Assembly: GCA_963931305.1 (NCBI GenBank)
Contig: OZ006994.1
Location: 282,955-346,954 of the forward strand
Reading direction: 5' to 3'
DNA: 64,000 bases
Source: an uncultured Bacilli bacterium
Lineage (GTDB): Bacteria > Bacillota_I > Bacilli_A > RF39 > UBA660
The position numbers and the translations under genes are program-made. This document shows, piece by piece, positions 8,984 to 26,951 of the stretch. Numbering within the stretch: position 1 is the first letter of the stretch; each line of letters begins with the position of its first letter. The notes under the pieces were generated by a model. The model saw only the letters and a list, made by a program, of their open reading frames with translations, made no database searches and was not told where the DNA came from.

Positions 8984-9080
8984 ATTTAAAAAAAATGTCG
9001 AAAATGTATTGCGATATAAAATCAAGATATGATAAAATGTGTATAGTAAAAGATATAGTAGAATAGGTAGGGATTTTTTT

Positions 9081-10137: not shown

Positions 10138-10190
10138 CATATTCCTATTTTGAATACATATAGTTAATTGAAAGAGAAAGTAGGGATTGA

Positions 10191-11390
10191 ATGGAAAAGA
10201 CAGATATTATTAAAAGTATCAGCAACCGTACAGGTGGTGATATTTACTTAGGAGTAGTAGGGGCAGTACGTACAGGAAAGTCTACTTTTATCAAAAAAGT
10301 GATTGAAACTTTAGTTGTCCCTAACATCGAAGATGAATATGAAAAGAAAAGAGCACTCGATGAGATTCCACAAAGTGCTCAAGGTAAGACAATTATGACA
10401 ACAGAGCCAAAGTTTGTACCGAGTCAAGCAGCTACCATTCATATTGATGAAGTAGAAGCTAAAATTAGACTTGTTGACTGTGTAGGGTATGTCATTCCGA
10501 ATGCCAAAGGTTATGAGGATGAGAATGGTCCTAGAATGGTAAAAACACCATGGTATGATGAACAAATACCATTTGTGGAAGCCGCAGAAATTGGAACAGA
10601 AAAAGTAATTAAAGATCATTCTACAATTGGGATTGTTGTAACAACTGATGGTTCGATTGGAGAATTAACTAGAAATGATTATATAGAAGCAGAAGAAAGA
10701 GTTGTCTCTGAATTAAAAGAAATGGGAAAACCTTTTATTATTATTTTAAACTCTACCCATCCAATGTTACCAGAAACAGAGCGATTGAGTGAAAAACTAA
10801 CAGAAACTTATGAAGTACCTGTACTTCCAATTAGCGTAGAAAATATGACAGAACGAGATATTTATAACATTCTAAGAGAAGCTCTTTATGAATTTCCAGT
10901 CGCAGAAGTAAATATTAATATGCCAGAATGGATTGGATGTTTATCTAAAGATCATTGGTTAAAGAAAATATATGTAGAAAAGATTAGAGAAAGTGTGATT
11001 GACATTGATAAATTAAAAGATGTTGATCAAATTATTACACCATTTCAAGATTGTGAGTATATCTCTCGTGCATACTTATCAGATGTTAATACTGAAACTG
11101 GTGTGATTACTCTTACATTAGATTGCCCGAATGATTTATATGGCACTGTATTAAAAGAAATTATCGGTGTAGATATTACATCAAAATCAGCTCTTTTATC
11201 ACTCTTCCAAGAATATCAAGTAGCAAAAAAAGAATACGATCAAGTAAAAGATGCACTTGCAATGGTAAAACAAACTGGTTATGGAGTTGCGACACCAACA
11301 CTGCAAGATATGAAATTATCAACCCCAGAAATTATTAAACAAGGAAGTCGTTATGGTGTAAAATTAAAAGCAGTAGCTCCCTCAATTCAC
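10191..11390 (+). CDS. spoIVA: Stage IV sporulation protein A, 5' segment (codons 1-400), interrupted by an inserted element. The ORF reads through into the element and ends at 11477 with unrelated residues.
   Basis: MEKTDIIKSISNRTGGDIYLGVVGAVRTGKSTFIKK… (Walker A) and near-colinear similarity to B. subtilis SpoIVA up to …GSRYGVKLKAVAPSIH. Similarity is then lost exactly where SpoIVA continues MIKVDVES. Confidence 0.9.
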
Positions 11391-11499
11391 ATAATATGTA
11401 CAAAAAGGAAGCGTACTCATTTGAGAGACTGCTTCCTTTTCAAAGATATAAGAAACATACTATTACCTACTATGTAGATGTAGATATTTCTTTCATTAA

Positions 11500-11562
11500 C
11501 TATAATCAATTATAACACACTTTCGACTAACTTACACACTTTTTGACTAGGTGTGTGTTTTA
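11500..11562 (+). promoter_or_regulatory. Operator-like repeats upstream of the XRE regulator gene: ACACACTTTCGACTAA … ACACACTTTTTGACTAGGTGTGTGT
   Basis: Direct repeat of ACACACTTT(c/tt)GACTA. The second copy forms a palindrome ACACAC-n-GTGTGT. A TATAAT-like element follows. Confidence 0.35.
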
Positions 11563-11605
11563 TACTATCACTTATATAATTTTTATATAAGGTGGTGGTA
11601 CTACT

Positions 11606-11896
11606 TTGACTTTAAGAAAAGATATAAAAGATATTTTCAAACAAAATTTGAGATACTATCGTTTAAAAAATAAACTAACTCAAGAAGATTTAGCTGTAAA
11701 GTCTGATTTAACTGATAAATATATATCTGATTTAGAAAGAGGAATATTCTCACCAAGTTTAGAAAAATTAGATATGTTAGCAGAAGCTCTTAATATTGAT
11801 ACATATTTATTATTAAAAGATGACCACTCTGAAGAGAAACTACCTAATAGATTAGATATAATTACAAAAACAAGAAAATCGAAAAGAAAGTATTAA
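11606..11896 (+). CDS. XRE-family helix-turn-helix transcriptional regulator
   Basis: …LTQEDLAVKSDLTDKYISDLERG… HTH_3 pattern. RBS AAGGTGGTGG. First gene inside the element. Confidence 0.7.
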   Translation: MTLRKDIKDIFKQNLRYYRLKNKLTQEDLAVKSDLTDKYISDLERGIFSPSLEKLDMLAEALNIDTYLLLKDDHSEEKLPNRLDIITKTRKSKRKY

Positions 11897-12115
11897 CATT
11901 ATCACAATATCATAAAACTTAATATACCTTTGATAATGAGAGTAACATTTTATTAAAAAGTGTTACTTTCTTTCTTTTATTACCCATTTAAAACGTGGTT
12001 AATGTTTTATTAAAGTAATATAAATTATTAACTTTAAAGAAAAAGTGTCCCAAAATGAACGTGAGATACTTTAGAATTGATGTTTTAATAATACTTATAC
12101 TAGTGGTTACTTTAA

Positions 12116-12877
12116 ATGTTAAAACTAATTATAATAGACCCTATATTTCAAGGTAAGGTTGATAGTATGACTATATTTAGAACAGTTAAAGATAATAATT
12201 ATACAGTAATCAGTAATACATATTTAAAAGATGAGAATTTAAGTTTTGGTGCTATTGGACTAATGACAGTATTATTATCTTGTAAAGATGATACAAAGTT
12301 TAGTGTCAGTTTAATCAGTAAAATAAGTCATAAGAGTAATAAAGTGATAACAAAGTATCTTAATGAATTAAAAAGAAACAAGTATATCTATGTAAAAAAG
12401 AAAAACACAAGAGATGGTTTTAAGTATGAGTATTCAATATATGAGTGTAAGGACTTTAACCCTTATTTTCTTAATATTAGCCCAGATACCCAAAACCCAA
12501 CATGGGAAAGCCCACCTATGGAGACGGGTAATACTATAATAAATACTATTAATAAACAAGATAAAATAGATAAAACAAAATTGAACTTGTGTTTTTTAAC
12601 TGAAAGTATTATTGACTCTGACTTTATTAAAGAAAATGATATTAATTTATTAAGTTATAACAACTTTCTATCTAAACTATTAGAAGAAAATAATAATCGA
12701 CTAGTTATTCAAGTTGTAAGGTATGTTGTAAAGAGAATTAAAGATAATGATTATTTAGATGAGAAGTCTAATCCTATTGAAAATCTACTTACTTATTTTA
12801 AGTCATCAGTTATTAATAATTTAGAGTCTATGAAAGTTCGAGCTGATGACTCTCTCTTTGATGACTGGGAAGAATAA
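12116..12877 (+). CDS. Replication initiator / phage replisome-organiser-like winged-helix protein. True start possibly the ATG at 12167.
   Basis: N-terminal wHTH-like segment (…FGAIGLMTVLLS…SLISKISHKSNKVITKYLNELKRNKYIY…) resembling the RepA_N / phage_rep_org_N class. Weak memory-based call. Confidence 0.35.
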   Translation: MLKLIIIDPIFQGKVDSMTIFRTVKDNNYTVISNTYLKDENLSFGAIGLMTVLLSCKDDTKFSVSLISKISHKSNKVITKYLNELKRNKYIYVKKKNTRDGFKYEYSIYECKDFNPYFLNISPDTQNPTWESPPMETGNTIINTINKQDKIDKTKLNLCFLTESIIDSDFIKENDINLLSYNNFLSKLLEENNNRLVIQVVRYVVKRIKDNDYLDEKSNPIENLLTYFKSSVINNLESMKVRADDSLFDDWEE

Positions 12878-13245
12878 CCTCTACTGATAGTAATAATTAA
12901 GAAGAACTTGATAATAAATATAGAATATTTATATATCAATTTTCTTTTTAAGTTACTATCATCTCTTTGTATTTTGGAGTATCGCAGATTAACGAAAGAT
13001 TAAAACTAATAAAATTATATAAGGAATAGTAAAACTAATCCCAGAAGTACTCCAAAATAAACGTAGGATGACTTATGGTAATAGTCTTACTTTACCAATG
13101 ATAAAAGAAAGTGTATTTAATCAACCTCACTAATGGAATTAGAGTTTTTAAATATTATTAGAATAATAATATTTAAGAAAAATTGGTAGTTTACAAACTA
13201 TAAAAACTTGATAATATAACCACTAATAAGAAAGGTGGTGTATTT

Positions 13246-13497
13246 ATGAACGATAAGTCAAATATAATCTTACGAATAGAAAAATTATCTAAACTATCAA
13301 ATGAATTAAAAGATACTGAAGTTTGTAAGGTTATAAAGAAGATATTAGACTTAATTAATGATATTTATATTTTAATTCCACAAAAAAGAATTAATAGGTG
13401 TAAATATTGTAGCGAACTCACAGATAGTCAAGACCCAAATATACTATGTCCTAATTGTATAGAAACATTCGGACATAGTTTTTTTAGTGAATTATAG
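13246..13497 (+). CDS. Small zinc-ribbon protein (CKYC…CPNC)
   Basis: Two CxxC pairs. RBS AAAGGTGGTG. Confidence 0.4.
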   Translation: MNDKSNIILRIEKLSKLSNELKDTEVCKVIKKILDLINDIYILIPQKRINRCKYCSELTDSQDPNILCPNCIETFGHSFFSEL

Positions 13498-13512
13498 AAA
13501 GGAAAATTAAAT

Positions 13513-13800
13513 ATGTTAAATCAAATAATATTTGTAGGAATACTAAAAGAAATGATTATTAAAGATGATTATTACATTATAAAATTAGAAGTACCAAGAC
13601 GTATAAAAGAAAATGATACTAAACGTAGTGATATTATTACTTTAAAAAAATATGGAATTAATCAACTTATGGAAGAACAAATGGAAATAGACGGTATTGT
13701 TGGTGTTAAAGGACATATTGAAACAGATGATAATGAAATAATGACAAACGTAATAGACAAACTTACATTTCTATCATCAAAGAAAAGGAGTAATAAATAA
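13513..13800 (+). CDS. Small OB-fold, SSB-like protein (tentative)
   Basis: Resembles an SSB OB fold: N-terminal IIFVGILKE, a KLEVPRR segment, a GIVGVKGHIE hairpin. Low confidence. Confidence 0.3.
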   Translation: MLNQIIFVGILKEMIIKDDYYIIKLEVPRRIKENDTKRSDIITLKKYGINQLMEEQMEIDGIVGVKGHIETDDNEIMTNVIDKLTFLSSKKRSNK

Positions 13801-14480
13801 TGGGTGTACTTGATATACATTATAAATACGACTATAAAGGTCGCTTACTTTATATGTTGTTACTAAACTATTATAGAAAGTATTACTCTGACAATAAATT
13901 TAATGGTAAAGTAGTTGTCGCTTGTTCTACTACATCAAGACTTATGAAAGACTATGATATTTTTTATAATACTATCAATTTATTAACAGTTAGTGATATT
14001 ATTAAATTAAATAACTTTACTTACTTCTATGATAAACAACTAAAATTACTCTTTAAAAGGTTAAGAGAAAAAAACGTTAGTTATGATAAATTAATCAAAG
14101 GAATTAAAGAAGAATATACTAAAGATAAATCTTTATATTATGATGACCTCTGTGATAACCACCACAACTTACCTAGTGATAAAAATGTTATATTTGTTGA
14201 AGTAAATAATTTAGTTCAAATATATAGTAAATACTTAATTAGAGATATATTTATTCCAGAGAAACAATATGTATCACAACTAGAGAGACAACATGGTGGT
14301 TTATACTTTGTTTTAAGTGAATATGTAGAAGAATTTATTAAGATGATTAATATATTAAAAGCTCACATTAATATACAAGATGATTTTCTTAAATTAAATC
14401 TATTTATTGATACTGATAAAGGTATAGATATAATTGACAAAGTTAACAGTAGAACAAGAGATGAAGAAGATGAGGAATAA
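13800..14480 (+). CDS. Hypothetical protein (226 aa) with acidic C-terminal tail
   Basis: ATGA-type overlap with the upstream gene. No motif recognised. Confidence 0.45.
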   Translation: MGVLDIHYKYDYKGRLLYMLLLNYYRKYYSDNKFNGKVVVACSTTSRLMKDYDIFYNTINLLTVSDIIKLNNFTYFYDKQLKLLFKRLREKNVSYDKLIKGIKEEYTKDKSLYYDDLCDNHHNLPSDKNVIFVEVNNLVQIYSKYLIRDIFIPEKQYVSQLERQHGGLYFVLSEYVEEFIKMINILKAHINIQDDFLKLNLFIDTDKGIDIIDKVNSRTRDEEDEE

Positions 14481-14481
14481 T

Positions 14482-14898
14482 ATGTTCGCAGATGAATTAA
14501 TTAATAAATTTTTAGATAGTGAAACTTATAAAGAATATGACAAGATTTACAAAGATAAAAACTATGTTGACCCACAACTATTAAAACAATTATTACTAGA
14601 ACACCACGACTTATATGAATTATTTTTAAAAGCGAATATCATTTTATATAAGTATGAGACCAAAGGATTAAAGAAAAGTTTTAACGACTGTTATTATCAT
14701 AATGAAAAGAGATTATTTTTAGAAGATGTATATAATGTTTTACTATATTACTACTCTCACTACTCTAGGTGTCAGACTGTTTTAAAAAAGATGATACAAT
14801 TAAAACTTGTACCAATGAGTGAAAGAAAAATATTAAAACTTATTCTTAATAGAGATATAAGTAAAGAGCTTATTCCACTTAACTTGACACAACTATAA
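14482..14898 (+). CDS. Hypothetical protein (138 aa). Start moved to the ATG at 14482, which has a GAGGAA RBS.
   Basis: The track ORF start at 14434 lies inside the upstream gene. The ATG just after that gene's stop has a good RBS. Confidence 0.4.
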   Translation: MFADELINKFLDSETYKEYDKIYKDKNYVDPQLLKQLLLEHHDLYELFLKANIILYKYETKGLKKSFNDCYYHNEKRLFLEDVYNVLLYYYSHYSRCQTVLKKMIQLKLVPMSERKILKLILNRDISKELIPLNLTQL

Positions 14899-14989
14899 TA
14901 TTAACAGTTTGAGAAAATGAAATTTTATGCTATACTATTGATAGAGTAAAGTAGAAGTCATACAGTTGGTAAATTGTGAGAGGTGTAGT

Positions 14990-16081
14990 ATGGAAAATGT
15001 AATAATGATAGTCCTAATAACAGTAATTTTAATAGGAACATCAATATTTCTTGAAAAGATTTTTAACAAACCAAGAGAAAAGTATAATTGGGATAAGCCA
15101 CCAAAGTTTTACTTTTATATCAGTATGTTTATACCTATTGTTGGTTTTATTATGTGGTGTGTATTTGTTAATCATAAACCTAATTCGGCAAAGTCAGCCG
15201 GAAGTGGTGCATTATGTAATATACTTTTATCAATTATAATTGTATTAAGTGCTTGGTTAATTAATTATTCTGTTTCGTTCGTAAACAATAATATTTTAGT
15301 TGAAGAATATACCAATACATACAATATTCATTTAAATACAGAAATGTCTGATAATTTAGATAAATATGATTTTGAAATGACAGTTACTTATACTGGAAAT
15401 AAAGAATATTTAGATAGATTTAAAGAAATGTATGAAGATGAAATATTCCCAAATAATCAATTAAATATAGATTTTGATGACATAGAAGAAACAAATAACA
15501 ACACCTATGATTTAATTCCATATATTGAAAATTATATTGATGAATTTTTTAATAACTATATAACTATGTATAAAAGTGCAGACGCTTATTCATCATTAGA
15601 ATATATAAAATATAAAATTAAAGAAAAAGAAATCATTGTTAAAGAATTAGTATTAGATGATGAAGAAATTTTGTTAAATTATGCAGTAGATAGTTTTAAC
15701 GATTATAATGGAGTAAAATTAAAAGTCGGAGATAAAGTGGATGTTTATTTTATAGATGAAGAAAATAAAGTGTTTTTTAAAATTATAAATAATAGTACAC
15801 TATTGAGTATTAAAAATGCTAGTGGAGAAAACATAACTAGTGGAATACCATCTATGTTTATCTTAACTGTAAAAGACAGTTACATAATAGATTTCATAAA
15901 TGCTTTCACATATAATTCATCAAGTAATAGATTTAGAACAGTTATTATTAAGCATGGCTCTACATTTTCATTAAATAATTATGAAGAATTAGAAAGTATT
16001 GATGATTATAATGATATGAGATTAAATAGTAATGAAGTTCCAACTGAAACTTTCGGTATAATTGGAGAGGTGCAAGAATGA
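14990..16081 (+). CDS. Membrane protein (363 aa): N-terminal 3 TM carrying the conserved FIPIVGFIMWC-VN-KP--AK-AG module, plus a soluble C-terminal domain
   Basis: Start moved to ATG 14990, which has a GAGAGGTG RBS. The module is shared with the C-terminus of the next gene. Confidence 0.5.
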   Translation: MENVIMIVLITVILIGTSIFLEKIFNKPREKYNWDKPPKFYFYISMFIPIVGFIMWCVFVNHKPNSAKSAGSGALCNILLSIIIVLSAWLINYSVSFVNNNILVEEYTNTYNIHLNTEMSDNLDKYDFEMTVTYTGNKEYLDRFKEMYEDEIFPNNQLNIDFDDIEETNNNTYDLIPYIENYIDEFFNNYITMYKSADAYSSLEYIKYKIKEKEIIVKELVLDDEEILLNYAVDSFNDYNGVKLKVGDKVDVYFIDEENKVFFKIINNSTLLSIKNASGENITSGIPSMFILTVKDSYIIDFINAFTYNSSSNRFRTVIIKHGSTFSLNNYEELESIDDYNDMRLNSNEVPTETFGIIGEVQE

Positions 16082-16569
16082 GTGATGCTTTATTTGAAGA
16101 AATAAATGATTTTAATGAAATAATTGTCAAACAAGACTTTATTAAAATAACAAAAAGTAATGATACTAAAGTTTATTATTTTAGTAAAATAGATTATAGC
16201 AGAAGCTTTAAAACAAATCTTAATGGCGACTATGTTGAAGTTAATATTTATGTTGATAATCAAGATGTCCTATTCATGATAAGAAAAGAAAATTTCTTGA
16301 AATTTAAAGAGATAATTACACCAATAAAAAGAGGTTATGAAAATACAGACTTTACTATTAATGAACAACATGAGTTATATAACCCAAGAGAAGATGACAA
16401 CCCTTCTCCTATTTATGTTATTGTTGGCTTCTTTATTCCAATATGTGGTTTTATTATGTGGTGTATATTAGTTAATACAAAACCAAAAACAGCTAAAATG
16501 GCTGGAATAGCTGGTATAATTGGTTTTATCATTAATTTTATAATATTTATTTATATCTTAACGAATTAA
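16078..16569 (+). CDS. Membrane protein (163 aa): soluble N-terminal domain plus a C-terminal paralogous FIPICGFIMWCILVNTKPKTAKMAG TM module
   Basis: ATGA overlap with the upstream gene. The ~45-aa module is duplicated in the two adjacent genes. Confidence 0.5.
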   Translation: MSDALFEEINDFNEIIVKQDFIKITKSNDTKVYYFSKIDYSRSFKTNLNGDYVEVNIYVDNQDVLFMIRKENFLKFKEIITPIKRGYENTDFTINEQHELYNPREDDNPSPIYVIVGFFIPICGFIMWCILVNTKPKTAKMAGIAGIIGFIINFIIFIYILTN

Positions 16570-16584
16570 AAGGAGTTAATAGTA

Positions 16585-17511
16585 ATGGAAGTATTAAAAA
16601 CTAAACGAGGAGTAATAATTATTATAGGCTTTATTATTGCAGTTATATGTCTTACCATAGGTATGATTTTGTTATTTAATCAAGATAACATAGTGGAAGA
16701 AGTAAAAGAACAAAATAATAATATTAAAGATGAAATTAAAGATGAAGATGATAAAAAAACAGAAGTTGATGATAATAATTCACAGAAAAACAATACAGAA
16801 GATAATAATAATAATAACTTAAACACAGATGAACAACAACAAACCCAAGAAGATAATAAAACTAATAATAATGATAATAATAGTAGCACTAGTACTAATA
16901 ACAATAGTAATAATTCTAGTAATACTCAAAAAACGACTACTAAAAATATAAATGTTGATGAGACTATTAGTTATAGTACTCAAGAGGTACAAGAAGTTAA
17001 TTTGCCAAGAGGTCAAAGACAGACTTCACAAGTAGGTAAAAATGGTATTAAAAGAATTACTTATAAAGTTACTTATAATTCAAATGGTACAGAAATATCA
17101 AGAACTAAAGTGTCAGAAAGTGTTATATCACAACCTATAAATCAAATAATAAAAATTGGAGTTAGCGATTTTAACTTAAATACATCAAAGTTAGAAAATG
17201 AAGTGTATAGTATGGATGCCTGTACTTCAAATCAGTTAGTAAATAATGGTGGTTATTACTGTACTGAAAGTAAAAAATTTAGTGGTATTTTTATAAATGG
17301 TACACTATATATAACTGGGATTTATAATCAAACTAGTATTAGTAACATAAGACCATTAATAGCTTTAAAGCCATCACTTTCTGGTGATATATACAATGGA
17401 AATTATAACGGAGCAAATTATTATTTCTTGATATCAAGCGGTAATTATGTTAATAGAGCTTTAACTCAAAGCGACTGTGATAAATATGGTTTGGCTTGTG
17501 GTAGATGGTAA
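16585..17511 (+). CDS. Membrane-anchored G5-domain protein with an N/D/T/Q-rich low-complexity linker and a Cys-containing C-terminal domain
   Basis: RBS AAGGAG. N-terminal TM. The G5 domain is the segment NVDETISYSTQEVQEVNLPRGQRQTSQVGKNGIKRITYKVTYNSNGTEISR…IKIGV. Four or more Cys in the C-terminal ~100 aa. Confidence 0.5.
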   Translation: MEVLKTKRGVIIIIGFIIAVICLTIGMILLFNQDNIVEEVKEQNNNIKDEIKDEDDKKTEVDDNNSQKNNTEDNNNNNLNTDEQQQTQEDNKTNNNDNNSSTSTNNNSNNSSNTQKTTTKNINVDETISYSTQEVQEVNLPRGQRQTSQVGKNGIKRITYKVTYNSNGTEISRTKVSESVISQPINQIIKIGVSDFNLNTSKLENEVYSMDACTSNQLVNNGGYYCTESKKFSGIFINGTLYITGIYNQTSISNIRPLIALKPSLSGDIYNGNYNGANYYFLISSGNYVNRALTQSDCDKYGLACGRW

Positions 17512-17556
17512 GGTACTAATATAGTACCTTTTCTTAATACATATAAAGAAAGAGAG

Positions 17557-18006
17557 ATGATAAAATATATGGAGACATTAAAAAACAAGAATTTAATTTT
17601 AGTAAATGGAAAAGCTGGAAGTGGTAAATCTACTTTTTTAGTAGATATATCTAATTCTATAAAAGACAAAACAATGTGTTTCATAGATTTAGAAGGTTCT
17701 ACTATTAGTAGATTAAAATTAAGTGATAACATAGATGTATATCTCAAACGTATAGATGACTTCTCAATAATAGATAAAATAGTTAATGATTATGATATTA
17801 TTATAATAGATTATCTTCAATTACTATCACGTTCATTAAATAAAAAATCCACTACCTTACTCGAGCAATTAAAAGAGTTAGCTGTTAATTTAAATAAAGT
17901 TATTATAGTAAGTTATTGTGAAAGTTCATATACTATTGATAAAAGTATAGATAAATGTAAAGAATATGCAGATTTAATTATAACTATAGAAAAGGCTGAA
18001 CAATGA
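17557..18006 (+). CDS. Mini RecA-fold ATPase resembling the DnaB helicase C-terminal domain (149 aa)
   Basis: Walker A NGKAGSGKSTF. IIIIDYLQLL matches the DnaB (V/I)IDYLQL(M/I) motif. Too short to be a full helicase. Confidence 0.45.
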   Translation: MIKYMETLKNKNLILVNGKAGSGKSTFLVDISNSIKDKTMCFIDLEGSTISRLKLSDNIDVYLKRIDDFSIIDKIVNDYDIIIIDYLQLLSRSLNKKSTTLLEQLKELAVNLNKVIIVSYCESSYTIDKSIDKCKEYADLIITIEKAEQ

Positions 18007-18224
18007 ACTATATAGAATTATATTGTAAAACAGTAATACAACCATTAGAGAAGATGAGAAATCAAATTTTAGATAAATATTACTCATCCATTTTCTTTAA
18101 GTCAAAATATAAATTACTATTAGATAAAATTGATGAAGAGTTAATGAATAAGTACAATAAGTTTAATGATATGATAGAAGAAGAAACAAAATTTCAAGAA
18201 TTATTAAAAGACAGTGTTAAGTAG
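18003..18224 (+). CDS. Small hypothetical protein (73 aa)
   Basis: ATGA overlap with the upstream ATPase gene. Confidence 0.35.
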   Translation: MNYIELYCKTVIQPLEKMRNQILDKYYSSIFFKSKYKLLLDKIDEELMNKYNKFNDMIEEETKFQELLKDSVK

Positions 18225-18311
18225 CACTGTTTTATTTTTACACTCTTTTTATATATGATAATGAACGACTTTTTATCAAAGTACATAAAAGTTAACGAAA
18301 GGACTGATACT

Positions 18312-18596
18312 ATGGTTACAGAACTAATACGATTAAAAGATGTGGCTAACAGACTTAATTTATCAACAGCGACACTTCGTAAGTATATACATAATGGAAA
18401 GCTAAAGGCTATAAAAGTTGGTGGTAATTATATGGTTAATACTAATGATTATGATGAGTTTGTCTTTAACTTATATGTTGAAAGTTTAGGATTAAATCCA
18501 ACTAAAGTAAAAGAATATTTAGAAAACGAAGCAAAGGAAGAATTAGAGCAAGAGTTAAATAAACTGATGAAACAAGTTGGTCTAATAAAAGATTAA
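18312..18596 (+). CDS. xis: Excisionase-family (MerR-like) HTH DNA-binding protein, candidate Xis
   Basis: LIRLKDVANRLNLSTATLRKYIHNGKLKAIKVGGNYMV is an excisionase-family HTH signature. Sits immediately upstream of the tyrosine integrase. Start moved to ATG 18312. Confidence 0.55.
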   Translation: MVTELIRLKDVANRLNLSTATLRKYIHNGKLKAIKVGGNYMVNTNDYDEFVFNLYVESLGLNPTKVKEYLENEAKEELEQELNKLMKQVGLIKD

Positions 18597-18652
18597 TTGT
18601 ACTTTGTTAAAACTCTGTATTAAAATATTAATTATTTAGAAATGAGGTAATT

Positions 18653-19615
18653 ATGAGTAATATTATTAGCATTGATAGTAAAGAGTTAATTAATATCAAT
18701 TCAAATCAAGATATAATAGACAAATGGTTAAAGTTTGCCGACGTTAGTAATAACACTAAACAAGCATATAAAAAAGGAGTTTATACTTTTATAGAGTTTA
18801 TTACTAATAAAAATATAAACACTATTACTAGAGAAATAGTATTAGATTTTAAAAATGAAATTATGTCTAAAAATTCTAATGCAACAGCTTATAACTATTT
18901 AAGTGGGTTAAAAAGTTTTTACAAATTTTTAGACTATGAAAATATTACACAAGATATAACTAGAAATATAAAATTACCAAAAATACCAAAAGGACATAAA
19001 AAAGACTCTCTAACTATTGAACAATTAAGGAGTCTTTTATCGTCTTTATCTAATGATACATTACTAAACTCAAGAGATTATTGTATTATTAATCTCATGA
19101 TAAGAACAGGTTTGCGTTCATGTGAAGTATTAGAAGCCAATGTTGGTGATATACAAACAAAAGATGGAAAGAAAATCTTATACATTAAAGGAAAAGGTCA
19201 TACTGAAAAAGATGATTTTGTCGTATTAGAATATGATATGCTTAACATAATTGATAATTACTTAAATAAAAGAAAAAATGTAATTGATAAATCTCCTCTA
19301 TTTATTAGTCTTAACCATAACACTTATGGCGAAAGATTAAAACCTTCTAGTTTTAGAAAAATAATTAAAAACAGGTTAAGGGATGCTGGTATAGATAGTC
19401 CTAGAATATCAGCACACTCTTTAAGACATACAGCAGTAACTTTTTCATTATTAGGTGGAGCCTCTATTCAAGAAGCAAAAGACATGGCTAGACATACAGA
19501 CGTAAATACAACATTAAATTATGCTCATAATCTTACAAGATTAAATGAAAGTCCAGAGTCTAAAATCGAACACTTCTTAAGAGAAAATATAACGCCAAAT
19601 GACTTTAAAAATTAA
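18653..19615 (+). CDS. int: Tyrosine recombinase / phage-type integrase
   Basis: N-terminal SAM-like domain. Catalytic-domain motifs …LMIRTGLRSCEVLEANVGD…, HSLRHTAVTFSLLGG, and …NYAH… with the Tyr nearby. RBS GAGGT. Confidence 0.8.
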   Translation: MSNIISIDSKELININSNQDIIDKWLKFADVSNNTKQAYKKGVYTFIEFITNKNINTITREIVLDFKNEIMSKNSNATAYNYLSGLKSFYKFLDYENITQDITRNIKLPKIPKGHKKDSLTIEQLRSLLSSLSNDTLLNSRDYCIINLMIRTGLRSCEVLEANVGDIQTKDGKKILYIKGKGHTEKDDFVVLEYDMLNIIDNYLNKRKNVIDKSPLFISLNHNTYGERLKPSSFRKIIKNRLRDAGIDSPRISAHSLRHTAVTFSLLGGASIQEAKDMARHTDVNTTLNYAHNLTRLNESPESKIEHFLRENITPNDFKN

Positions 19616-19618
19616 TGT

Positions 19619-19650
19619 TTGGTATCTATAATTATTATTACAGATACCAA
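19619..19650. repeat. Perfect 9-bp inverted repeat TTGGTATCT-n13-AGATACCAA immediately 3' of int, between convergent genes
   Basis: Seen directly. Not followed by a T-run in either orientation, so it is not a canonical terminator. Candidate att/arm-type or end-of-module site. Confidence 0.4.
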
Positions 19651-19656
19651 AAAAGA

Positions 19657-20757
19657 TTAAATAAGTTTATACTTTTTACAAAGTTCAAATAACATTTTTT
19701 CATCTTTTTTAGATGAGTCTTTGAAATGTGTTTTTACAGCAGTTGTTTCATCAACTAGTTGGTTTAATTCTTTATTATTTAATTTACGTAATCGACCAAC
19801 TAAATCTCTACAATTATCATTCAAAGTCTTACGTTTAAGTCTTTCATTAAAATTAGGGTCCTCGTCAAAACAACTTTCACAAAGATTTTTAATAGTGCTT
19901 GATGTAGGTTGTAAACATCTACAACAAATCTTAAAGCTGTCAGAATTCCAGTAAATACAATTTAGAAAATAATAAGTTAAAGACTGAACTAGATTATTTG
20001 TTTCAATATAACCACCGTTAGTATTAGATATAATTGGTGTAGCATAATTTTTATAAGCAGATATATATAGACTAAATTCTTCCTTTAGACTTTCAACATA
20101 ATAATTAAATTCATCTATGTATTTCTTTTTATCTTGAATAGTATCAAAACCCATGAGTTTATTTAATTTCTTTTTGTTTAAATCATCTAAATCAGTATCT
20201 AAAATTTTCTTTAACTCTGTTAATAAATAAACTGTAATAGAAGTAAAAATTAAGTCTTTTACCCTAACACATAATGGTAAATCAGTTTGATTACCCTCTT
20301 CAATAGTATCTTTTTCTAAATTTTCAAAATATGGAAGACCATTTTGTTTACAGAAATTTATAATAACATTAGTAATATTTTTATCTTGGAATAAACTATC
20401 ATAGTCATTAATAAAAATAACATGATTTGTATTAGGTTCAAGGTCTTCATGTAAATCAAATTCATTCTTATATATTACATCATTTCTATTTTTACCATTA
20501 AAAGACACTGGCATTATTCTAATTTTTTCTCTTTTCTTTATAAAGATACGACTAAAGTATTTTATATTTTCAATATTTAAATATAAAGTTTTCCCAAAAT
20601 CAATAAATTCTTTATACAAATTTTCTAAACTTTCACTCTCTGTTAAAAAAACGTCTTTACCAGTAGCTTCTATCACATAGTAATTAAATAGCTTTTTAAC
20701 ACTATAATTTTCAAATCTATATAATGTTCTTTTTAATTTAAGTCCCATTTTTATCAA
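19657..20757 (-). CDS. Hypothetical protein (366 aa) with C-terminal Cys-rich (CCRC…CESC) zinc-binding-like region
   Basis: The only minus-strand gene in the element. Convergent with int and divergent from the downstream block. Confidence 0.45.
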   Translation of the reverse strand: MIKMGLKLKRTLYRFENYSVKKLFNYYVIEATGKDVFLTESESLENLYKEFIDFGKTLYLNIENIKYFSRIFIKKREKIRIMPVSFNGKNRNDVIYKNEFDLHEDLEPNTNHVIFINDYDSLFQDKNITNVIINFCKQNGLPYFENLEKDTIEEGNQTDLPLCVRVKDLIFTSITVYLLTELKKILDTDLDDLNKKKLNKLMGFDTIQDKKKYIDEFNYYVESLKEEFSLYISAYKNYATPIISNTNGGYIETNNLVQSLTYYFLNCIYWNSDSFKICCRCLQPTSSTIKNLCESCFDEDPNFNERLKRKTLNDNCRDLVGRLRKLNNKELNQLVDETTAVKTHFKDSSKKDEKMLFELCKKYKLI

Positions 20758-20959
20758 TTCTCCTTTACAAAATATTAATTTTCATTCCCACTTTTTTCCG
20801 ACCCATAGACATTGAAGTTAAGATGAGATAAGTTGTTGTTGTCGCGACAAAAATGTGTGCTTTATTATAACACACATTAGAAAATTAACAAGACTTGAAG
20901 ACTTGTTATAAAAATTAAAGAAGTGGTAATCCACAAAAAAAAAGAAAGGAAAAAATATT

Positions 20960-21454
20960 ATGCATGAAAATATTGAAGAGACGTTAAACTGGACGTCTGA
21001 AAATAATCCAGTTAATAATGGAATAAACCTCGAAGAGGAATTCCAAAAAAGCAGTGAAAAGGAAGCTACTGCTTTACAAAAAAAGTTCCTAAATGCCTGT
21101 GGCGATATTAGTGAGGAATTTAAACCTGCCACATTTAAGGAATGTCAATTCAAAATTGGCACCAAAAATGGTACGCCATATCTAACGATGGTGTACCAAT
21201 ACAAAAATGTTGACAAGATTATTGAAGATAATTTTTATCTCTCCAATAATGCTTATCAACACAATTTAGAACGTTTAGATAGCGTTCTACACATTATGGG
21301 AGGAAAACTAGAGTTAACCAATACGGTTAACGAAAATGTACTAAAAGATTACATAAATAAATTTAAAGGAGCTGAAGTCTTAATAAGCCAGTTCCGAAAC
21401 AAAGATGGGCATAAACTATGTAATGTAGCAAGCCTACCAAAGGAGGTGGAATAA
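20960..21454 (+). CDS. Hypothetical protein (164 aa)
   Basis: RBS GAAAGGAAAA. No motif recognised. Confidence 0.4.
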   Translation: MHENIEETLNWTSENNPVNNGINLEEEFQKSSEKEATALQKKFLNACGDISEEFKPATFKECQFKIGTKNGTPYLTMVYQYKNVDKIIEDNFYLSNNAYQHNLERLDSVLHIMGGKLELTNTVNENVLKDYINKFKGAEVLISQFRNKDGHKLCNVASLPKEVE

Positions 21455-21455
21455 T

Positions 21456-21956
21456 ATGGCTATCTATAATGGCAAGCATAAAGAAAGCTCTATTGAGGAA
21501 GCACGAGTTTCTTTCATAGAGCTTCAAAATGCTGCTAAACAAAGTCAAAGAAAGCCTAAATTTGTTCCTATAACAAATCAATGGTATGACGGAGTTTTAA
21601 GTGAAATAGTACTAACAAAATCCGTTACTAAAGGTTATCCATGTATTGCGATAACTTTTAGCATACCAAGAGAGAGAAAGCCTGAAGATAAAGAAACGAA
21701 ATATGATAAGATTATCATTAATCATATTCTTTCTAATTTAGCAGGGCCTAAATCTTTAAGAGAGATAAAACGACTATTGTCTATTTTAGGAGTTTCAAAC
21801 CAAGAATTAAATACTATCAGTAATATAGAAACTGAATATAAATTTGTTGAGTATCTTCAAAAATTTGTAGGAACACCTATACGTATTAAATCAACATCAG
21901 ATAGTAGTACCAAATCATACGATATTGAAAGACGAGACGTAAATAATGGAAAATAA
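21456..21956 (+). CDS. Hypothetical protein (166 aa)
   Basis: Tightly packed with its neighbours. No motif recognised. Confidence 0.4.
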   Translation: MAIYNGKHKESSIEEARVSFIELQNAAKQSQRKPKFVPITNQWYDGVLSEIVLTKSVTKGYPCIAITFSIPRERKPEDKETKYDKIIINHILSNLAGPKSLREIKRLLSILGVSNQELNTISNIETEYKFVEYLQKFVGTPIRIKSTSDSSTKSYDIERRDVNNGK

Positions 21957-23829
21957 TTTAAAATATGTCGTATTACAAAAAAGGTCAAAAAAGCCAACCG
22001 CCAATTCTAACGGTGGTTGGCTATTAACTGAAGACCCAACAGCTTATGATGATGTTGGTTTGTATTTAAATAACATAAAAGATGTTGTAGTAGTTGATTT
22101 TGATTCTCTAAAAGAAAATAATGAGTATGAAGATAAAATTATTAGAGTAATACAAAAGAAATATCCAAGCAGTCTTGTTGTAAAAACAGATAAAGGGTAT
22201 CACTTGTATTATAAAACAAAGAGAAAAATTAAAAATCAAACAAAAACTATGGTTTGTTTAGGTATAAAAGTAGACTTTAAAGTTGGAAATTCATACACTG
22301 TTATTAAAAGAAACGGCAAGTTTAGACAATATAATGGAGATTTTGACTTCACAAAGTTAAACGAATTACCAGATATTTTATTACCTCTTCCTACTAAAGA
22401 AGCAAAAATACAAGCTGGAATAACCGAAGGGGCTAGAAATGATAGTTTGTTTAAGCATTTATGTAGAATAAGAAAATTTTATGATGATGTTAATTTATCT
22501 GAAATAGCCCACTTTATAAACCAATATTTATATAATCCACCAATGGAAACACAAGAAGTTGAAGGTATAGTTGCTTCATCTTTAAAACAAAATATTGAAA
22601 CATTTGAAGATGATAAATCAGCTAAGTTTTATGAAGCGATAGAAAATGTAATAGAAGAATATAAAGTTCATCTAGCTAATAACAACCTATATTTTCTATA
22701 TAATGGACATTATGAAAATGATGACTTTAAACTTCTAAAACTAGTTTATAATTATTGTAGTTTTTCTATATCCAATAGTGAAAACGTTATATTTCAATTA
22801 AAAATGAAAGCTACACCATGGGACGAGAAAAACATAATCGCTATCAAAAATGGCATTATAGAAAATGGCGTGTATAAAAATATAAGTGATGTCTTTACAC
22901 CTTTTTATATTGATGTTACATACGACCCTAATGCCTACTCTAAAGTACTTGATGATTTTATACAATTCATTACTAATAATCAAGATAGTAAAGAAAAAAA
23001 TGATTTAAGAATTGTTTTAGAAGAAATGTTCGGTCATTGTCTAATGTTTGATGACTTTCCACATAAAATATTTTTACTTGTTGGAAAAGGAAATAACGGT
23101 AAAAGTGTCTTACTTAACTTTATATGTAATTTCTTTCAAAATATGTACTCAAGTGTACCTATTAACTATATAGATAAAGATAATTATGTCGCTAGGATAG
23201 TTAATAAATTAGTTAATATCTCTGATGATGTAGATTATAACTATTTAGTAAGTAGTCAAAATATTAAAAAAATCGCTTCAGGAGACCACGTATCAGCAAG
23301 AGAGTTATACGGTAAAAGTTTCGACTTTAAAAGTACTTGTACTCAAATATACTCTATGAACGAACTAATAAAGTTCAAAGATAAATCTTATGGTATGGAA
23401 AGGCGTCTTTGTATTATTCCATTTAAAAATGAAGTAAAAGATGTTGACCCACATATGTTAAAGAAATTACTTAATGATGAAGCTAAATCTTACTTTCTAA
23501 ACCTAGCTTTAGAAGGAATAAAAAGAATAAAAGAAAATAACTGTCAATTAAGTAAATCTACAATAATAGAAAAAACTATAAAAAGATATATCAATGAAAG
23601 TGATACTGTCGAAATGTTCTTTAATTATGGCGATGTAGGTGATATAAACGAACGTCAATTTTCAATAATATACGAAGCATATAAAAGTTTCTGTATTGAT
23701 AATGAGTATATTCCATGTACAAAAAATGGTTTCAGTAGAAGACTACATAAAAAGGGTTACACTAGTGTACCAAGAAAAATTGATAATAAATCTGTGAGAA
23801 TGATTATAAGGGAAGATAAAGATGAATGA
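21946..23829 (+). CDS. Bifunctional Prim-Pol primase with PriCT-1 and a P4/D5-type SF3 helicase domain (replicative primase-helicase)
   Basis: N-terminal Prim-Pol features (VVDFD, GYHLYY). PriCT_1-like EGARNDSLFKHLCRI. C-terminal Walker A LLVGKGNNGKSVL and Walker B-like ISDDVDY of the phage/plasmid primase P4 family. Confidence 0.7.
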   Translation: MENNLKYVVLQKRSKKPTANSNGGWLLTEDPTAYDDVGLYLNNIKDVVVVDFDSLKENNEYEDKIIRVIQKKYPSSLVVKTDKGYHLYYKTKRKIKNQTKTMVCLGIKVDFKVGNSYTVIKRNGKFRQYNGDFDFTKLNELPDILLPLPTKEAKIQAGITEGARNDSLFKHLCRIRKFYDDVNLSEIAHFINQYLYNPPMETQEVEGIVASSLKQNIETFEDDKSAKFYEAIENVIEEYKVHLANNNLYFLYNGHYENDDFKLLKLVYNYCSFSISNSENVIFQLKMKATPWDEKNIIAIKNGIIENGVYKNISDVFTPFYIDVTYDPNAYSKVLDDFIQFITNNQDSKEKNDLRIVLEEMFGHCLMFDDFPHKIFLLVGKGNNGKSVLLNFICNFFQNMYSSVPINYIDKDNYVARIVNKLVNISDDVDYNYLVSSQNIKKIASGDHVSARELYGKSFDFKSTCTQIYSMNELIKFKDKSYGMERRLCIIPFKNEVKDVDPHMLKKLLNDEAKSYFLNLALEGIKRIKENNCQLSKSTIIEKTIKRYINESDTVEMFFNYGDVGDINERQFSIIYEAYKSFCIDNEYIPCTKNGFSRRLHKKGYTSVPRKIDNKSVRMIIREDKDE

Positions 23830-24322
23830 GTTTTACAATAAAAAGTTTTTTGACCTATTAGAAGAAATAAAAAGAGATTATCAATTAGTATATGCTAAAC
23901 AACTACTGGACTTACAAGAACGCATGCAAGAAGCTGGTCCTATAAAAGATAGACGCCTTGAACTGTTATATAAATTTCCAGTAGAAAGAGAAATAATAAA
24001 AGAAATTATAATGGAAAGATTACGAAGAGCTCAAGGCGAGCTAATTTTACCCGAAGATGAACTCACAGAAGAACAAAAAGTTTTAAGTGAAAAAAGAAGT
24101 CTAATAAAAAGTTATATGGTTGAAAATTTAATACCAGATATTTTGTTTGATGAGTTTTATGAAAATTATTTAAAAAAGTATGAGGGAGTTGAAGAAAAAT
24201 ACTTAATGTCTAAAAGCGAAGTAAAAAAAGAATTACAAAGTGTAGGGTTTGGGGTAAAAGTAGAATATGACTTAAACGACGAGCCTAAAAAATATATAGT
24301 ATTTAGGTTTTATAATTGGTAG
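23822..24322 (+). CDS. Hypothetical protein (166 aa)
   Basis: ATGA overlap with the primase gene. Confidence 0.4.
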   Translation: MNEFYNKKFFDLLEEIKRDYQLVYAKQLLDLQERMQEAGPIKDRRLELLYKFPVEREIIKEIIMERLRRAQGELILPEDELTEEQKVLSEKRSLIKSYMVENLIPDILFDEFYENYLKKYEGVEEKYLMSKSEVKKELQSVGFGVKVEYDLNDEPKKYIVFRFYNW

Positions 24323-24852
24323 TAACGTAGTATTAATGCGAGAAACCTTTACAAAGCTATTCAAAATTAAATACGTAATAAAAATATTGAACAGCTAAGT
24401 TATAAAACGCGTAACTTACAGTTTACGAAGTCATCAATGCTATATATAATATACCCTAAATTTAACGATTTAAAGCTAATATAAGGCGAAGTCGGTTTAT
24501 AAGTATATCAATACCTACAACTAGTAAAAAACGCTACCATAAGCTCTGTGGCACGTTCTATAAAATATAGGAACGAAAATGATATTAACTCTTTCACTTT
24601 AAAATAGAGTTAAGAAAGCACTTGATGTTAAAAACGTACAAATTCAAGGTAAATGGTACTGGACTTTAGGAAACGAAATAAATAACCAAGCCCTAAATGA
24701 AATACTTATAATCTAACAAACTAATATGTACTTTACTTAAAAATTGTTTTATTATATACCCCATAAAAAAGAATAGGAAAATATTTTGTCATAAATAAAT
24801 AATGATATTTTCCTATCTTTCTTAATAAAGTTTTACTAGGAGGAATTGATTT

Positions 24853-25026
24853 ATGGAAAATAATGTTAAAAGTATCATAGATAAAATAAGTAAATTCAAA
24901 TTACAACTTATCATCAATAAAAATCTTTTTTCTAGTAATGTTATTAGTAGTAGTATCTATGAACAGATGGAGTCATCACTATTAGAAAAAATAGAAACAT
25001 TAAATAAGGAATTATCACTTATTTAA
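24853..25026 (+). CDS. Small coiled-coil protein (57 aa, MENNVKSIIDKISKFKLQ…), translationally coupled (TAATG) to the serine recombinase. Candidate recombination directionality factor.
   Basis: RBS AGGAGG 7 nt upstream. The stop overlaps the recombinase ATG. Under 60 aa, so absent from the ORF track. Confidence 0.4.
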   Translation: MENNVKSIIDKISKFKLQLIINKNLFSSNVISSSIYEQMESSLLEKIETLNKELSLI

Positions 25027-26681
25027 TGCTAACATTATTTGAAATCAGAAATGCCCTAGCTGATGGTATATCTATATTTGATTTACATTTAAAAGTTACT
25101 TATTATGCTAGGGTATCTACTGATAAATACGACCAGTTAAACTCTTTGGAAAATCAAATAACCTACTACGAACATTTTATTAGAGAAAATACAAATTGGA
25201 CTTTTGTTGATGGTTATGTTGATGAGGGAATTACTGGTACTTCAACAGCTAAACGTGATGATTTTAAACGTATGATTAGAGACGCTAAAAATAAAAAATT
25301 TAATTTAATTATAACTAAAGAAATATCAAGGTTCGCAAGAGATACTTTAGATAGTATAAAGTATACAAGAAAACTATTAGAGTATGGTGTTGGTGTTTTA
25401 TTCCAATACGACCATATAAACACTTTTAATCCTGACTCTGAATTGAGATTAACTATTATGGCTTCTATCGCACAAGAGGAAGTTAGAAAACTATCTGAAA
25501 GAGTAAAGTTTGGTTTCCAAAGGTCTATTGAAAAAGGAAATGTTTTAGGTAACAATGCTATATGGGGTTATAAAAAAGATAATTGTAAGTTAGTTATTGT
25601 AGAGGAAGAAGCAGAAATTATTAGAAGAATATTTGATATGTATGTTAATGAACATATTGGTATGCGAACTATCGGACATAAATTAGCTGATTTAGGTTAT
25701 TACAATAGTAATGGAAAACCTTTCACTCAAAATACAATTAAAAATATTCTTACTAATCCTAAATATAAAGGTTATTACTGTGGAAATAAGACAAGAGTTA
25801 TTGACTATCACTCTAAACAAAGAGTAAATATTGAAAAAGATGACTGGAAGCTTTACGAAGATAATGAGAGTGTTCCACCTATTGTAAGTGCTTCTATATG
25901 GGAAAAAGCCCAAAAGATTATTGAAGCTAGAAGTAAAAAGCTATCTAAAGATAAAACAGTATATCAAAATAGGTACCCGTTTAGTGGAAAAATTTATTGT
26001 ATGGAGCATAATACGACATATAGAAGAAAAGTAAATACAAGTAGTGGTATAAAAAAGAAAAAGGTAGTTACTTGGAGATGTAGCGAGTTTTTAAAACATA
26101 ATACTAAAGGTTGTGATGGTCCTATTCTTTATGATAATGAATTAAGAGAAATTGTTGGTAAAACAATATTAAGTTACGTGTCTAATATTAATGTCATTGA
26201 TGATTTAATGAAAGAGTACAAAGAACTTCAAAGTAATATGGATTTTAAAGATGAGATAGAAGTAAAACAGAAGAAAATAGAAATGTTAGAAAAGAAGAAA
26301 AGTAAAATACTTGACCTAATTCTAAAAGACTTAATTAATGAAGATGATTTTAAACTACAAGTAGAGAAAATAGTTAACGAAATTCATAAACTTGAAGATG
26401 AAATAACTATTTTAGAAGAAAAAAGTAATCATTTATTAGAAGATGAGAGATATTTAGAAAGTGTCAAGAAAAAAGCGAAAGAACTACTTGAGTATGAGAA
26501 AGCCGATATTGATAGTTTGATTTATGAATTTTTAGAGAAGATAGAAGTCTATAAGATGAAAGACAAAGATTTTATAAAGTTAAGAATTATACTTAATACT
26601 GGAGATAATTACAGTATTTCTTTTAAAAATAAAACGCATCCTTCTTGTTCGTATTATACATATGATTCGTGTCGATGTTGA
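25026..26681 (+). CDS. Large serine recombinase: resolvase catalytic domain, recombinase domain, zinc ribbon, coiled coil. SpoIVCA/CisA-like.
   Basis: YYARVSTDKYDQLNSLENQ carries the catalytic Ser. Resolvase motifs …DEGITGTS…R… follow. Cys cluster CMEHN…WRCSEF…CDG. C-terminal coiled coil. The 3' end reads across the spoIVA junction. Confidence 0.85.
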   Translation: MLTLFEIRNALADGISIFDLHLKVTYYARVSTDKYDQLNSLENQITYYEHFIRENTNWTFVDGYVDEGITGTSTAKRDDFKRMIRDAKNKKFNLIITKEISRFARDTLDSIKYTRKLLEYGVGVLFQYDHINTFNPDSELRLTIMASIAQEEVRKLSERVKFGFQRSIEKGNVLGNNAIWGYKKDNCKLVIVEEEAEIIRRIFDMYVNEHIGMRTIGHKLADLGYYNSNGKPFTQNTIKNILTNPKYKGYYCGNKTRVIDYHSKQRVNIEKDDWKLYEDNESVPPIVSASIWEKAQKIIEARSKKLSKDKTVYQNRYPFSGKIYCMEHNTTYRRKVNTSSGIKKKKVVTWRCSEFLKHNTKGCDGPILYDNELREIVGKTILSYVSNINVIDDLMKEYKELQSNMDFKDEIEVKQKKIEMLEKKKSKILDLILKDLINEDDFKLQVEKIVNEIHKLEDEITILEEKSNHLLEDERYLESVKKKAKELLEYEKADIDSLIYEFLEKIEVYKMKDKDFIKLRIILNTGDNYSISFKNKTHPSCSYYTYDSCRC

Positions 26682-26937
26682 ATCTACCTTTGAACCAATT
26701 ATCGGATCAGAATTACAAAGTAAAGAATTAATTCAATATCTTATGAAAGATCATGATAATGACCCAGCAAGTATTTGGAAAAGTGAAATATTTGGACGTA
26801 GTTTAGATGTTATTGTCAAAGAAGGAATTCAAGCTAAAATCTCACTATTGCCTGATAATGTACGCTTTAAATTACAAACAACACTCTCTAAATTAGTCAA
26901 TAAAGGTTCTGGTAATTTATTTGCTATTGTACTTTAG
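26662..26937 (+). CDS. spoIVA: Stage IV sporulation protein A, 3' segment (codons 401-491)
   Basis: MIRVDVESTFEPIIGSELQSKELIQYLM…SLDVIVKEGIQAKISLLPDNVRFKL…GSGNLFAIVL matches the SpoIVA C-terminus …MIKVDVESEFAPIIG…REGIQAKLSLMPENARYKL…GSGGLIAIIL. Confidence 0.9.
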   Translation: MIRVDVESTFEPIIGSELQSKELIQYLMKDHDNDPASIWKSEIFGRSLDVIVKEGIQAKISLLPDNVRFKLQTTLSKLVNKGSGNLFAIVL

Positions 26938-26951
26938 AATAAAACAATAAA

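Follow-up and report, generated by a model that had tools for sequence, protein, structure and literature searches.

Several genes of the sporulation programme are known to be interrupted by intervening elements, among them sigK, spoVFB, spoVR, spsM, gerE and kamA (PMC4191935, PMC5595907, PMC6957869), yabG (PMC10747680), prkA (PMC7192596) and, through skin-like elements, cotJC and spoIIID (bioRxiv 10.1101/2022.02.25.481979). Here we report that in a 64,000-nucleotide stretch of the genome of an uncultured Bacilli bacterium (contig OZ006994.1; the whole stretch is hereafter called the window) spoIVA is split by a 15.3-kb element, and that this gene is a new target for the known class of sporulation gene-intervening elements. 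Several features of the class are found at the locus: a mother-cell sporulation gene is interrupted, the element has its own recombinase and matched attachment (att) sites, and precise excision would restore the reading frame. As judged from its sequence, the element is probably of the skin, SP-beta and gin kind and would be excised during development. Expression of spoIVA in the mother cell is established for B. subtilis as well as C. difficile and, to our knowledge, SpoIVA alone among the coat morphogenetic proteins is conserved throughout the endospore formers; it acts at the very start of the mother-cell programme. The original prediction made from this DNA knew of no established case of spoIVA as a target of such elements; in agreement with this, no mention of it as a target was found in the searchable full-text literature, outside which most subscription journals lie, and an earlier mention is possible.

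The likeness to the skin element of sigK (B. subtilis SpoIVCA/Skr; C. difficile CD1231/CD1234) comprises a large serine recombinase at the border of an element in a mother-cell sporulation gene, a small partner open reading frame (ORF) directly upstream of or overlapping the recombinase, as in the skr-spoIVCA pair of B. subtilis (PMC6957869), and variable cargo, with sizes between a few and tens of kb (bioRxiv 10.1101/2022.02.25.481979). The skin-like character proposed in the original prediction is further borne out by the nearest relatives of the recombinase, which are skin-type enzymes; those resident in sigK share 40-47% identity with that of the window. On the other hand, sigK encodes a late regulator whereas spoIVA encodes a structural ATPase acting at the very start of the sigma-E programme, the window element lacks phage structural genes, and the ORF of its recombinase crosses the crossover point. 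In B. cereus ATCC 10987, the gin element of gerE (PMC5595907) is likewise not a prophage, uses a serine recombinase and is excised during sporulation so that a short conserved coding region is rebuilt, but its target and recombinase lineage are different, and its excision was shown experimentally whereas that of the spoIVA element is predicted from sequence. With SP-beta in spsM, for which the term site-specific recombination unit was used (PMC4191935, PMC5499854, PMC6957869), the parallel lies in a portable unit, made up of attL, a directionality factor, an integrase and attR, that can be swapped between otherwise unrelated elements; such a unit is all that the window element shares with a second spoIVA element of our collection (L088). 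In SP-beta a mother-cell sigma factor controls the directionality factor; SP-beta is, however, an active phage with a second, stress-induced excision route, for which no counterpart was identified in the window element. Finally, yin in yabG of C. botulinum (PMC10747680) and the cotJC and spoIIID elements (bioRxiv 10.1101/2022.02.25.481979) also split sporulation genes and bear recombinases. These are single-strain observations, whereas the spoIVA insertion recurs at one codon in at least 30 species from several orders.

The plus-strand ORF at 10191-11477 is colinear with SpoIVA up to ...VKLKAVAPSIH, with codon 400 ending at 11390, and then continues for 28 unrelated codons to a stop; a second plus-strand ORF, 26662-26937, opens with MIRVDVES (MIRVDVESTFEPIIG). 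Joining 10191-11390 to 26662-26937 in silico, with 15,271 bp removed, gave a stop-free protein of 491 aa that aligned over its full length and without a gap to NCBIfam TIGR02836, the spore_IV_A equivalog, in a single stretch (residues 1-491 against model positions 1-492 of 492; 727.6 bits, cutoff 459.9). The split and the exact rejoining of the frame were as first predicted, and the interrupted gene is the SpoIVA equivalog. The Walker A motif GAVRTGKST is present, and the Pfam domains SpoIVA_ATPase, SpoIVA_middle and SpoIVA_C all have matches in intact relatives; the first two are matched by the 428-aa product of the 5' segment, and SpoIVA_C by the 91-aa 3' products of relatives. A second spoIVA, which the original prediction had named as a possible objection, was not found in the window, where TBLASTN with SpoIVA returned the two segments only. 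Since NCBI and ENA contain the identical 428-aa truncated product on five independent contigs, of which the longest has 1,256,474 bp, the split is real and stable and does not result from misassembly. ENA ERZ21549410 is one example of a sample with the window allele.

Uninterrupted relatives of this gene carrying the attB sequence, whose existence was also anticipated, are present: intact 491-aa SpoIVA proteins with 97-99% identity are abundant in metagenomes (dozens of alleles), and one contig (L002) represents a syntenic empty site with the same upstream genes as the window. In BLASTN, L002 8-11199 corresponds to window 177-11389 and L002 11195-12016 to window 26656-27477, the empty site reading ...CCATCAATTCA|TATGATCCGTGTC... 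The left junction diverges from attB at 11390 (C for T) and the right one at 26658 (A for T), so that the only core common to attL, attR and the empty site is the CA of the His-400 codon (11388-89 and 26659-60). This comparison alone cannot fix the crossover because position 6 (C/T) is synonymous and possibly polymorphic. In a standard large serine recombinase site, the arms of an imperfect dyad enclose a non-palindromic centre of 2 bp, and the window sites, with their CA centre, are of this type. When attP was rebuilt from the element ends, the best dyad centre fell on that CA in 15/15 loci with both ends available; the arms were complementary at 12-21 of 22 positions, and at no more than 11 around any other centre. 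For the window attP, CCTTCTTGTTCGTATTATA-CA-CATAATATGTACAAAAAGG, 18 of the 22 arm positions pair, in accordance with the partial dyad symmetry noted earlier for the element-side site. On this sequence evidence the crossover is the CA of the His-400 codon, placed independently by the dyad centre of attP. The arms are conserved in the family, one side having CTTCTGTTTGT...ATACA and the opposite side ...ACAAACAGAAG, and the chromosome after excision is predicted to read ...TCA ATT CAT ATG ATT CGT..., with spoIVA intact. The ACATA that the original prediction saw at both junctions does occur there, but out of register: its two copies are offset by 15,269, whereas 15,271 restores the frame. ACATA was rejected as the crossover, because recombination at that offset gives ...CAC ATA TGA and creates a stop.

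The 551-aa recombinase had been described as ending inside the right junction, and this is the case: besides its Pfam domains, it keeps residues that are invariant in 24 relatives (Y27, R29 and S31 of the catalytic YARVST motif, and C325, C352 and C363), and its stop lies 19 nt into the spoIVA 3' segment, the final seven codons (TYDSCRC) and the stop being host DNA. The ORF therefore extends over both sides of the crossover, and excision must alter its C-terminal tail; on the predicted excised circle the frame would be prolonged by at least 37 codons read from the left end. Such straddling is general in the family, and the change of tail may bear on the control of directionality. For the majority of the family, the stop codon of the recombinase is provided by the TGA within a host A-TGA-T, overlapping the ATG of Met-401 (ATGA). 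In a 635-aa protein present in NCBI and JGI (P0232), a recombinase 50% identical to that of the window is fused in one ORF to the SpoIVA middle and C domains, the recombinase frame reading straight into the spoIVA 3' segment.

The stop of a 57-aa ORF overlaps the start of the recombinase gene. Its position and size recall Skr, by analogy with which it is a candidate recombination directionality factor. A hidden Markov model built from 14 such ORFs detected a same-strand homologue in 28/30 junction-type spoIVA elements and gave no match in L013, L050, L054 and L075. The homologue is usually located directly upstream of the recombinase; cargo intervenes between the two in L010 and L012, and L014 and L015, the only members in which it is not upstream, have it just inside attL, where it could be expressed by read-through from the spoIVA promoter. 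Compared with its L088 counterpart, the small ORF shows a ratio of nonsynonymous to synonymous divergence (dN/dS) of 0.09, indicating purifying selection. It had no name in Pfam, PHROG or the source annotation, and a homology search returned near-identical, unnamed relatives only.

The sigma-E consensus is kmATATT-N14-CATACAnT. The motif upstream of the window's spoIVA fits it, and the same bipartite motif precedes spoIVA in L002, L003, L088, L036, L014 and L043. For the small ORF-recombinase operon, a pattern T[GC]ATA[TA]T-N14-AATA[AT][AG][GC]T is kept upstream of the small ORF in all six members of the window clade; its -35 region and spacing fit sigma-E and its -10 region departs at the first base. 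Over 32 spoIVA-type loci, sigma-E-like scores of at least 18 were reached upstream of the small ORF in 44% (13% of shuffles), of at least 19 in 19% (2.6%) and of at least 20 in 12.5% (0.4%), with full matches in L009, L024, L036 and L037 and near-full ones in L035 and L040; a plain sigma-70 promoter scan was not above shuffles. This enrichment is suggestive of sigma-E control of the operon.

Relatives of the recombinase number thousands. Starting from an alignment of 24 of them and taking one genome per species, we collected 80 loci. At 32 of these, spoIVA fragments were found, and in 30 of the 32 the fragment abuts the recombinase or the att arm at one codon boundary, ...S-I-H | M-I/M-R/K... 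The carriers are gut and soil Firmicutes of at least 30 species and several orders: uncultured Bacilli-like metagenome-assembled genomes from gut, Firmicutes bacterium CAG:822, Oscillospiraceae (Oscillibacter, Dysosmobacter, Lawsonibacter), Pseudoflavonifractor capillosus An827, P. intestinihominis CLA-AP-H29, Ruminiclostridium papyrosolvens C7 and Defluviitaleaceae from termite guts. Element sizes are 2,805 (L088), 3,129, 5,067, about 6,100-7,100, 8,515, 9,398, 10,041 and 15,271 bp, and the only parts shared between elements are the att arms, the sigma-E-like promoter, the ORF of about 57 aa and the recombinase. The DNA common to the window and L088 elements is confined to 24780-26660 (94% nucleotide identity) and the left end, 11391-11478 (93%); their cargo is unrelated, that of L088 being a single Fic gene. 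Their recombinases are 94.7% identical, with a synonymous divergence (dS) of 0.21, whereas the SpoIVA proteins of the two hosts share 75% of their amino acids (dS 1.35). This difference implies horizontal transfer of the recombination unit. The recombinase is not always at the right edge, since in L016 it is on the attL side and convergent with the spoIVA 5' segment (904-2520 and 2504-3718), and in L042 it lies 4.4 kb from attR.

At other loci of the scan, the recombinase adjoins SigK fragments at three breakpoints, as in skin elements, or fragments of a serine-type D-Ala-D-Ala carboxypeptidase (NCBIfam DacA/DacD-like). The related recombinases of the latter loci (about 43-47% identity) are also accompanied by the small upstream ORF; one site, with the break ...GGS|EENFV..., is seen in L041, L060 and L067, and a second in L074, L077 and L082. 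If this carboxypeptidase is of the sporulation type (dacB-like), the list of interrupted sporulation genes would gain a further entry. By neighbour joining, the sigK recombinases are placed in a separate group, and those of spoIVA form a Clostridia-type and a Bacilli-type group, the window belonging to the latter. The family also has neighbours unrelated to sporulation, namely FeoB fragments (L068, L073) and a CBASS-type cGAMP-activated patatin phospholipase (L028).

All 11 split loci in which both halves are available rejoin to 491-492 aa with no internal stop. Against intact alleles the window's split spoIVA shows dS of 0.39-0.66 and dN/dS of 0.028, values of 0.45 and 0.025 being obtained between intact alleles, and for the split pair L010/L012 they are 0.41 and 0.013. 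The elements of this pair are colinear, with 88-89% nucleotide identity, and their recombinases show dS of 0.44 and dN/dS of 0.07. The matching dS of element and gene implies that both have co-diverged and that spoIVA was under strong selection while split, which is difficult to square with pseudogene status. In the family, the recombinases are themselves under purifying selection (dN/dS 0.03-0.13). With respect to the host, a selected spoIVA is notable in an uncultured low-G+C lineage with small genomes; the nearest named SpoIVA (83%) is that of Candidatus Fimihabitans intestinipullorum, filed by NCBI under Mycoplasmatota incertae sedis.

Taken as an intervening element of the skin kind, the locus would work as follows. 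The non-phage element sits within codon 400, between the middle and C-terminal domains, and because of this cut vegetative cells and the spore germline would carry an inactive spoIVA. Its compact recombination unit consists of the 88-bp left arm, the sigma-E-like promoter, the 57-aa ORF translationally coupled to the recombinase, and the recombinase extending across attR. The recombinase, together with the small protein as directionality factor, would recombine attL with attR at the central CA, releasing the element as a circle with a near-palindromic attP and leaving a chromosome with an intact spoIVA; on the forespore chromosome the element would be retained and so inherited. We infer excision, its timing, its occurrence in the mother cell and the role of the small ORF.

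Several observations speak against this scheme. Two attP patterns found no attP junction in viral contigs, and the family-level pattern gave a single match in metagenome contigs (L087), an unrelated hairpin with no recombinase nearby; the exact rejoined protein was absent from a collection of 15 billion proteins. The lack of both products is what one would expect were excision limited to mother cells, which lyse afterwards. In addition, the window's -10 element (AATAAAGT) lacks the consensus C, and its promoter score of 17/20 is reached by 42% of shuffles; the small ORF resembles none of the characterised directionality factors; and the host belongs to an uncultured low-G+C lineage in which sporulation has yet to be observed. 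As SpoIVA acts very early, a delay caused by excision might also be costly. The claim is directly testable, since some carriers (R. papyrosolvens C7 and Pseudoflavonifractor strains) are cultured. If it is true, programmed rearrangement reaches the earliest structural step of spore assembly, beyond late regulators, and annotation and surveys of sporulation capacity misread carriers as having spoIVA pseudogenes. The family would also be a source of natural large serine recombinases whose attB and attP sites are defined and which come with a small candidate directionality factor; these could be tried as tools.

A wider idea, which we regard as rather doubtful, is that the spoIVA recombination unit is a horizontally mobile developmental gate for unrelated cargos, in which sigma-E-driven excision would license the start of coat and cortex assembly and at the same time release a replication-competent circle. 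Such a circle might be amplified by the primase-helicase and the DnaD-like initiator and freed at mother-cell lysis, sporulation serving as a dispersal stage, which would explain transfer between species.

Among the alternatives to developmental excision, a reversible switch would involve excision and re-integration in growing cells through signals other than sigma-E, such as stress or the element's own Xre repressor, setting the fraction of cells able to form spores, much as active lysogeny or phase variation does. Because large serine recombinases need no partner to integrate attP into attB, re-integration would be mechanistically easy; the window element, with its Xre repressor, replication genes and second integrase/excisionase pair, could persist as an episome, and the movement of the recombination unit between species is also in line with such a switch. 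The minimal elements of 2.8-3.1 kb (L088, L008), however, keep the unit and carry neither replication nor repressor genes, sigma-E-like promoters are enriched upstream of the small ORF, and excision takes place in the mother cell for every characterised relative in a sporulation gene (PMC4191935, PMC5025042, PMC5595907), which together make the switch unlikely.

Even less can be said for a dead-end insertion, in which a site-specific element landed in spoIVA and inactivated it with no developmental excision, the carriers being asporogenous or independent of SpoIVA. It would agree with the failure to find the excision product in any of the collections searched and with the fact that most strains of the window's species have an intact spoIVA, the element being therefore dispensable; certain named carriers, among them Pseudoflavonifractor capillosus, have been described as non-sporulating. 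We consider it very unlikely in view of the intact halves at every one of the complete loci, the dN/dS of split alleles (0.013-0.03), equal to that of intact ones, the equal synonymous divergence of element and gene in L010/L012, where the gene was kept while split, the purifying selection on the recombinases, and the targeting of the same codon in at least 30 species by recombinases with identities down to 42%. It is extremely improbable that residues 1-400 with their 28-aa tail and the 91-aa C-terminal domain are translated apart and assemble in trans with no DNA rearrangement since, even though the 3' segment starts at an in-frame ATG (Met-401), the cut is at a domain boundary and the ATGA overlap of most family members permits translational coupling, Met-401 is preceded by a conserved att arm and no Shine-Dalgarno sequence, the window's recombinase stops 19 nt past the ATG and allows no coupling, and the constant presence and conservation of the recombinase with matched att sites would be left unexplained.

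Features of the split spoIVA locus and of the element within it. Positions are those of the window; the last two rows are predicted products of excision.
Feature	Position	Strand	Remarks
spoIVA promoter, sigma-E-type	10137-10164	+	TCATATT (10137-43), 13-nt spacer, CATATAGT (10157-64)
spoIVA 5' segment	10191-11389	+	Codons 1-400, ATPase and middle domains; open frame runs into the element, stop 11475-77
attL crossover dinucleotide CA	11388-11389	+	Dyad centre of rebuilt attP; compatible with the comparison of attL, attR and L002
Intervening element	11390-26660	+	15,271 bp; BLASTN to empty site
Conserved left end	11391-11478	+	88 bp; right arm of attP (CATAATATGTACAAAAAGGAAG) and stable hairpin
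Xre/Cro-type helix-turn-helix (HTH) regulator, cargo	11606-11896	+	Pfam HTH_3 1.4e-14; PHROG transcriptional repressor
DnaD-like replication initiator or helicase loader, cargo	12116-12877	+	PHROG 4707, 186, 428
Cargo ORFs with no assigned function	13246-18224	+	Include two paralogous membrane proteins
G5-domain protein, cargo	16585-17511	+	
Small DnaB_C-like P-loop protein, cargo	17557-18006	+	
HTH_17 excisionase-like gene	18255-18596	+	Second recombination module within cargo
Tyrosine integrase	18653-19615	+	Second recombination module within cargo
Primase/helicase	21946-23829	+	Prim-Pol, PriCT_1, DUF5906, D5-like (Pfam); PHROG 864 DNA primase 4.5e-100
Candidate sigma-E-like promoter of small ORF-recombinase operon	24803-24831	+	TGATATT, 14-nt spacer, AATAAAGT
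57-aa small ORF	24853-25026	+	Stop overlaps recombinase start (TAATG)
Large serine recombinase, 551 aa	25026-26681	+	Pfam Resolvase PF00239, Recombinase PF07508, Zn_ribbon_recom PF13408; PHROG 95 integrase 1.7e-118
attR crossover dinucleotide CA	26659-26660	+	Dyad centre and empty-site comparison
spoIVA 3' segment	26661-26937	+	Third base of codon 400, codons 401-491 and stop; C-terminal domain
Terminator-like hairpin downstream of spoIVA	26950-26980	+	
attP junction of window allele (excised circle, predicted)			CGTATTATACACATAATATGTAC
attB of window allele (rejoined, predicted)			GCTCCCTCAATTCATATGATTCGTGTC; with its own flanking single-nucleotide polymorphisms

The G+C content of the element is about 0.23-0.28, that of the flanks 0.28-0.35. 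Its 88-bp left end is 93% identical to that of the otherwise unrelated L088 element and 80% to that of L008. The hairpin at 11403-11440, just inside attL (-19.9 kcal/mol, z = -3.4), overlaps the att arm with its 5' stem and could be a terminator or an additional protein-binding site. In a PHROG scan of all 20 element ORFs the matches belonged to the regulator, replication, integrase and excisionase categories only, and no capsid, tail, terminase or lysis genes were found; a prophage or defective prophage was rejected on the grounds that structural, packaging and lysis genes are lacking. The primase/helicase is also present in the L090 and L091 elements, which at the position equivalent to the tyrosine integrase module have a small serine resolvase; a repeat search within the window element found none marking the ends of a nested element around that module. 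Rfam and tRNA scans of the element gave one weak chance match and no tRNA. A 76-nt direct repeat (74% identity; 15128-15203 and 16432-16507) corresponds to a common transmembrane segment of the adjacent cargo ORFs 14966-16081 and 16078-16569.

The cargo of the window element amounts to about 13 kb, and that of other members is diverse. In R. papyrosolvens C7 (L012; contig NZ_ATAY01000007.1, element of about 6.3 kb) it spans 5917-9878 and comprises an AgrB gene, a 44-aa peptide ORF, a GHKL sensor kinase and a dockerin-bearing GH53 galactanase, so that quorum-sensing and cellulosome genes are carried on an element in a sporulation gene whose excision is predicted. The L088 Fic gene (5298-6038) is 79% identical to a Fic gene situated directly downstream of the intact spoIVA in L003-L006 (7553-8296), a gene that the empty site L002 lacks. 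Methyltransferases, the small resolvase and a DUF5906 primase make up the cargo reported here for the L090 and L091 elements. In L091 there are, moreover, two copies of the spoIVA 3' fragment (11658-11933 and 14173-14448), 97.8% identical, each preceded by an attR-like arm and with two ORFs between them, an arrangement suggesting a second element, in tandem or decayed, or else the capture of a target fragment.

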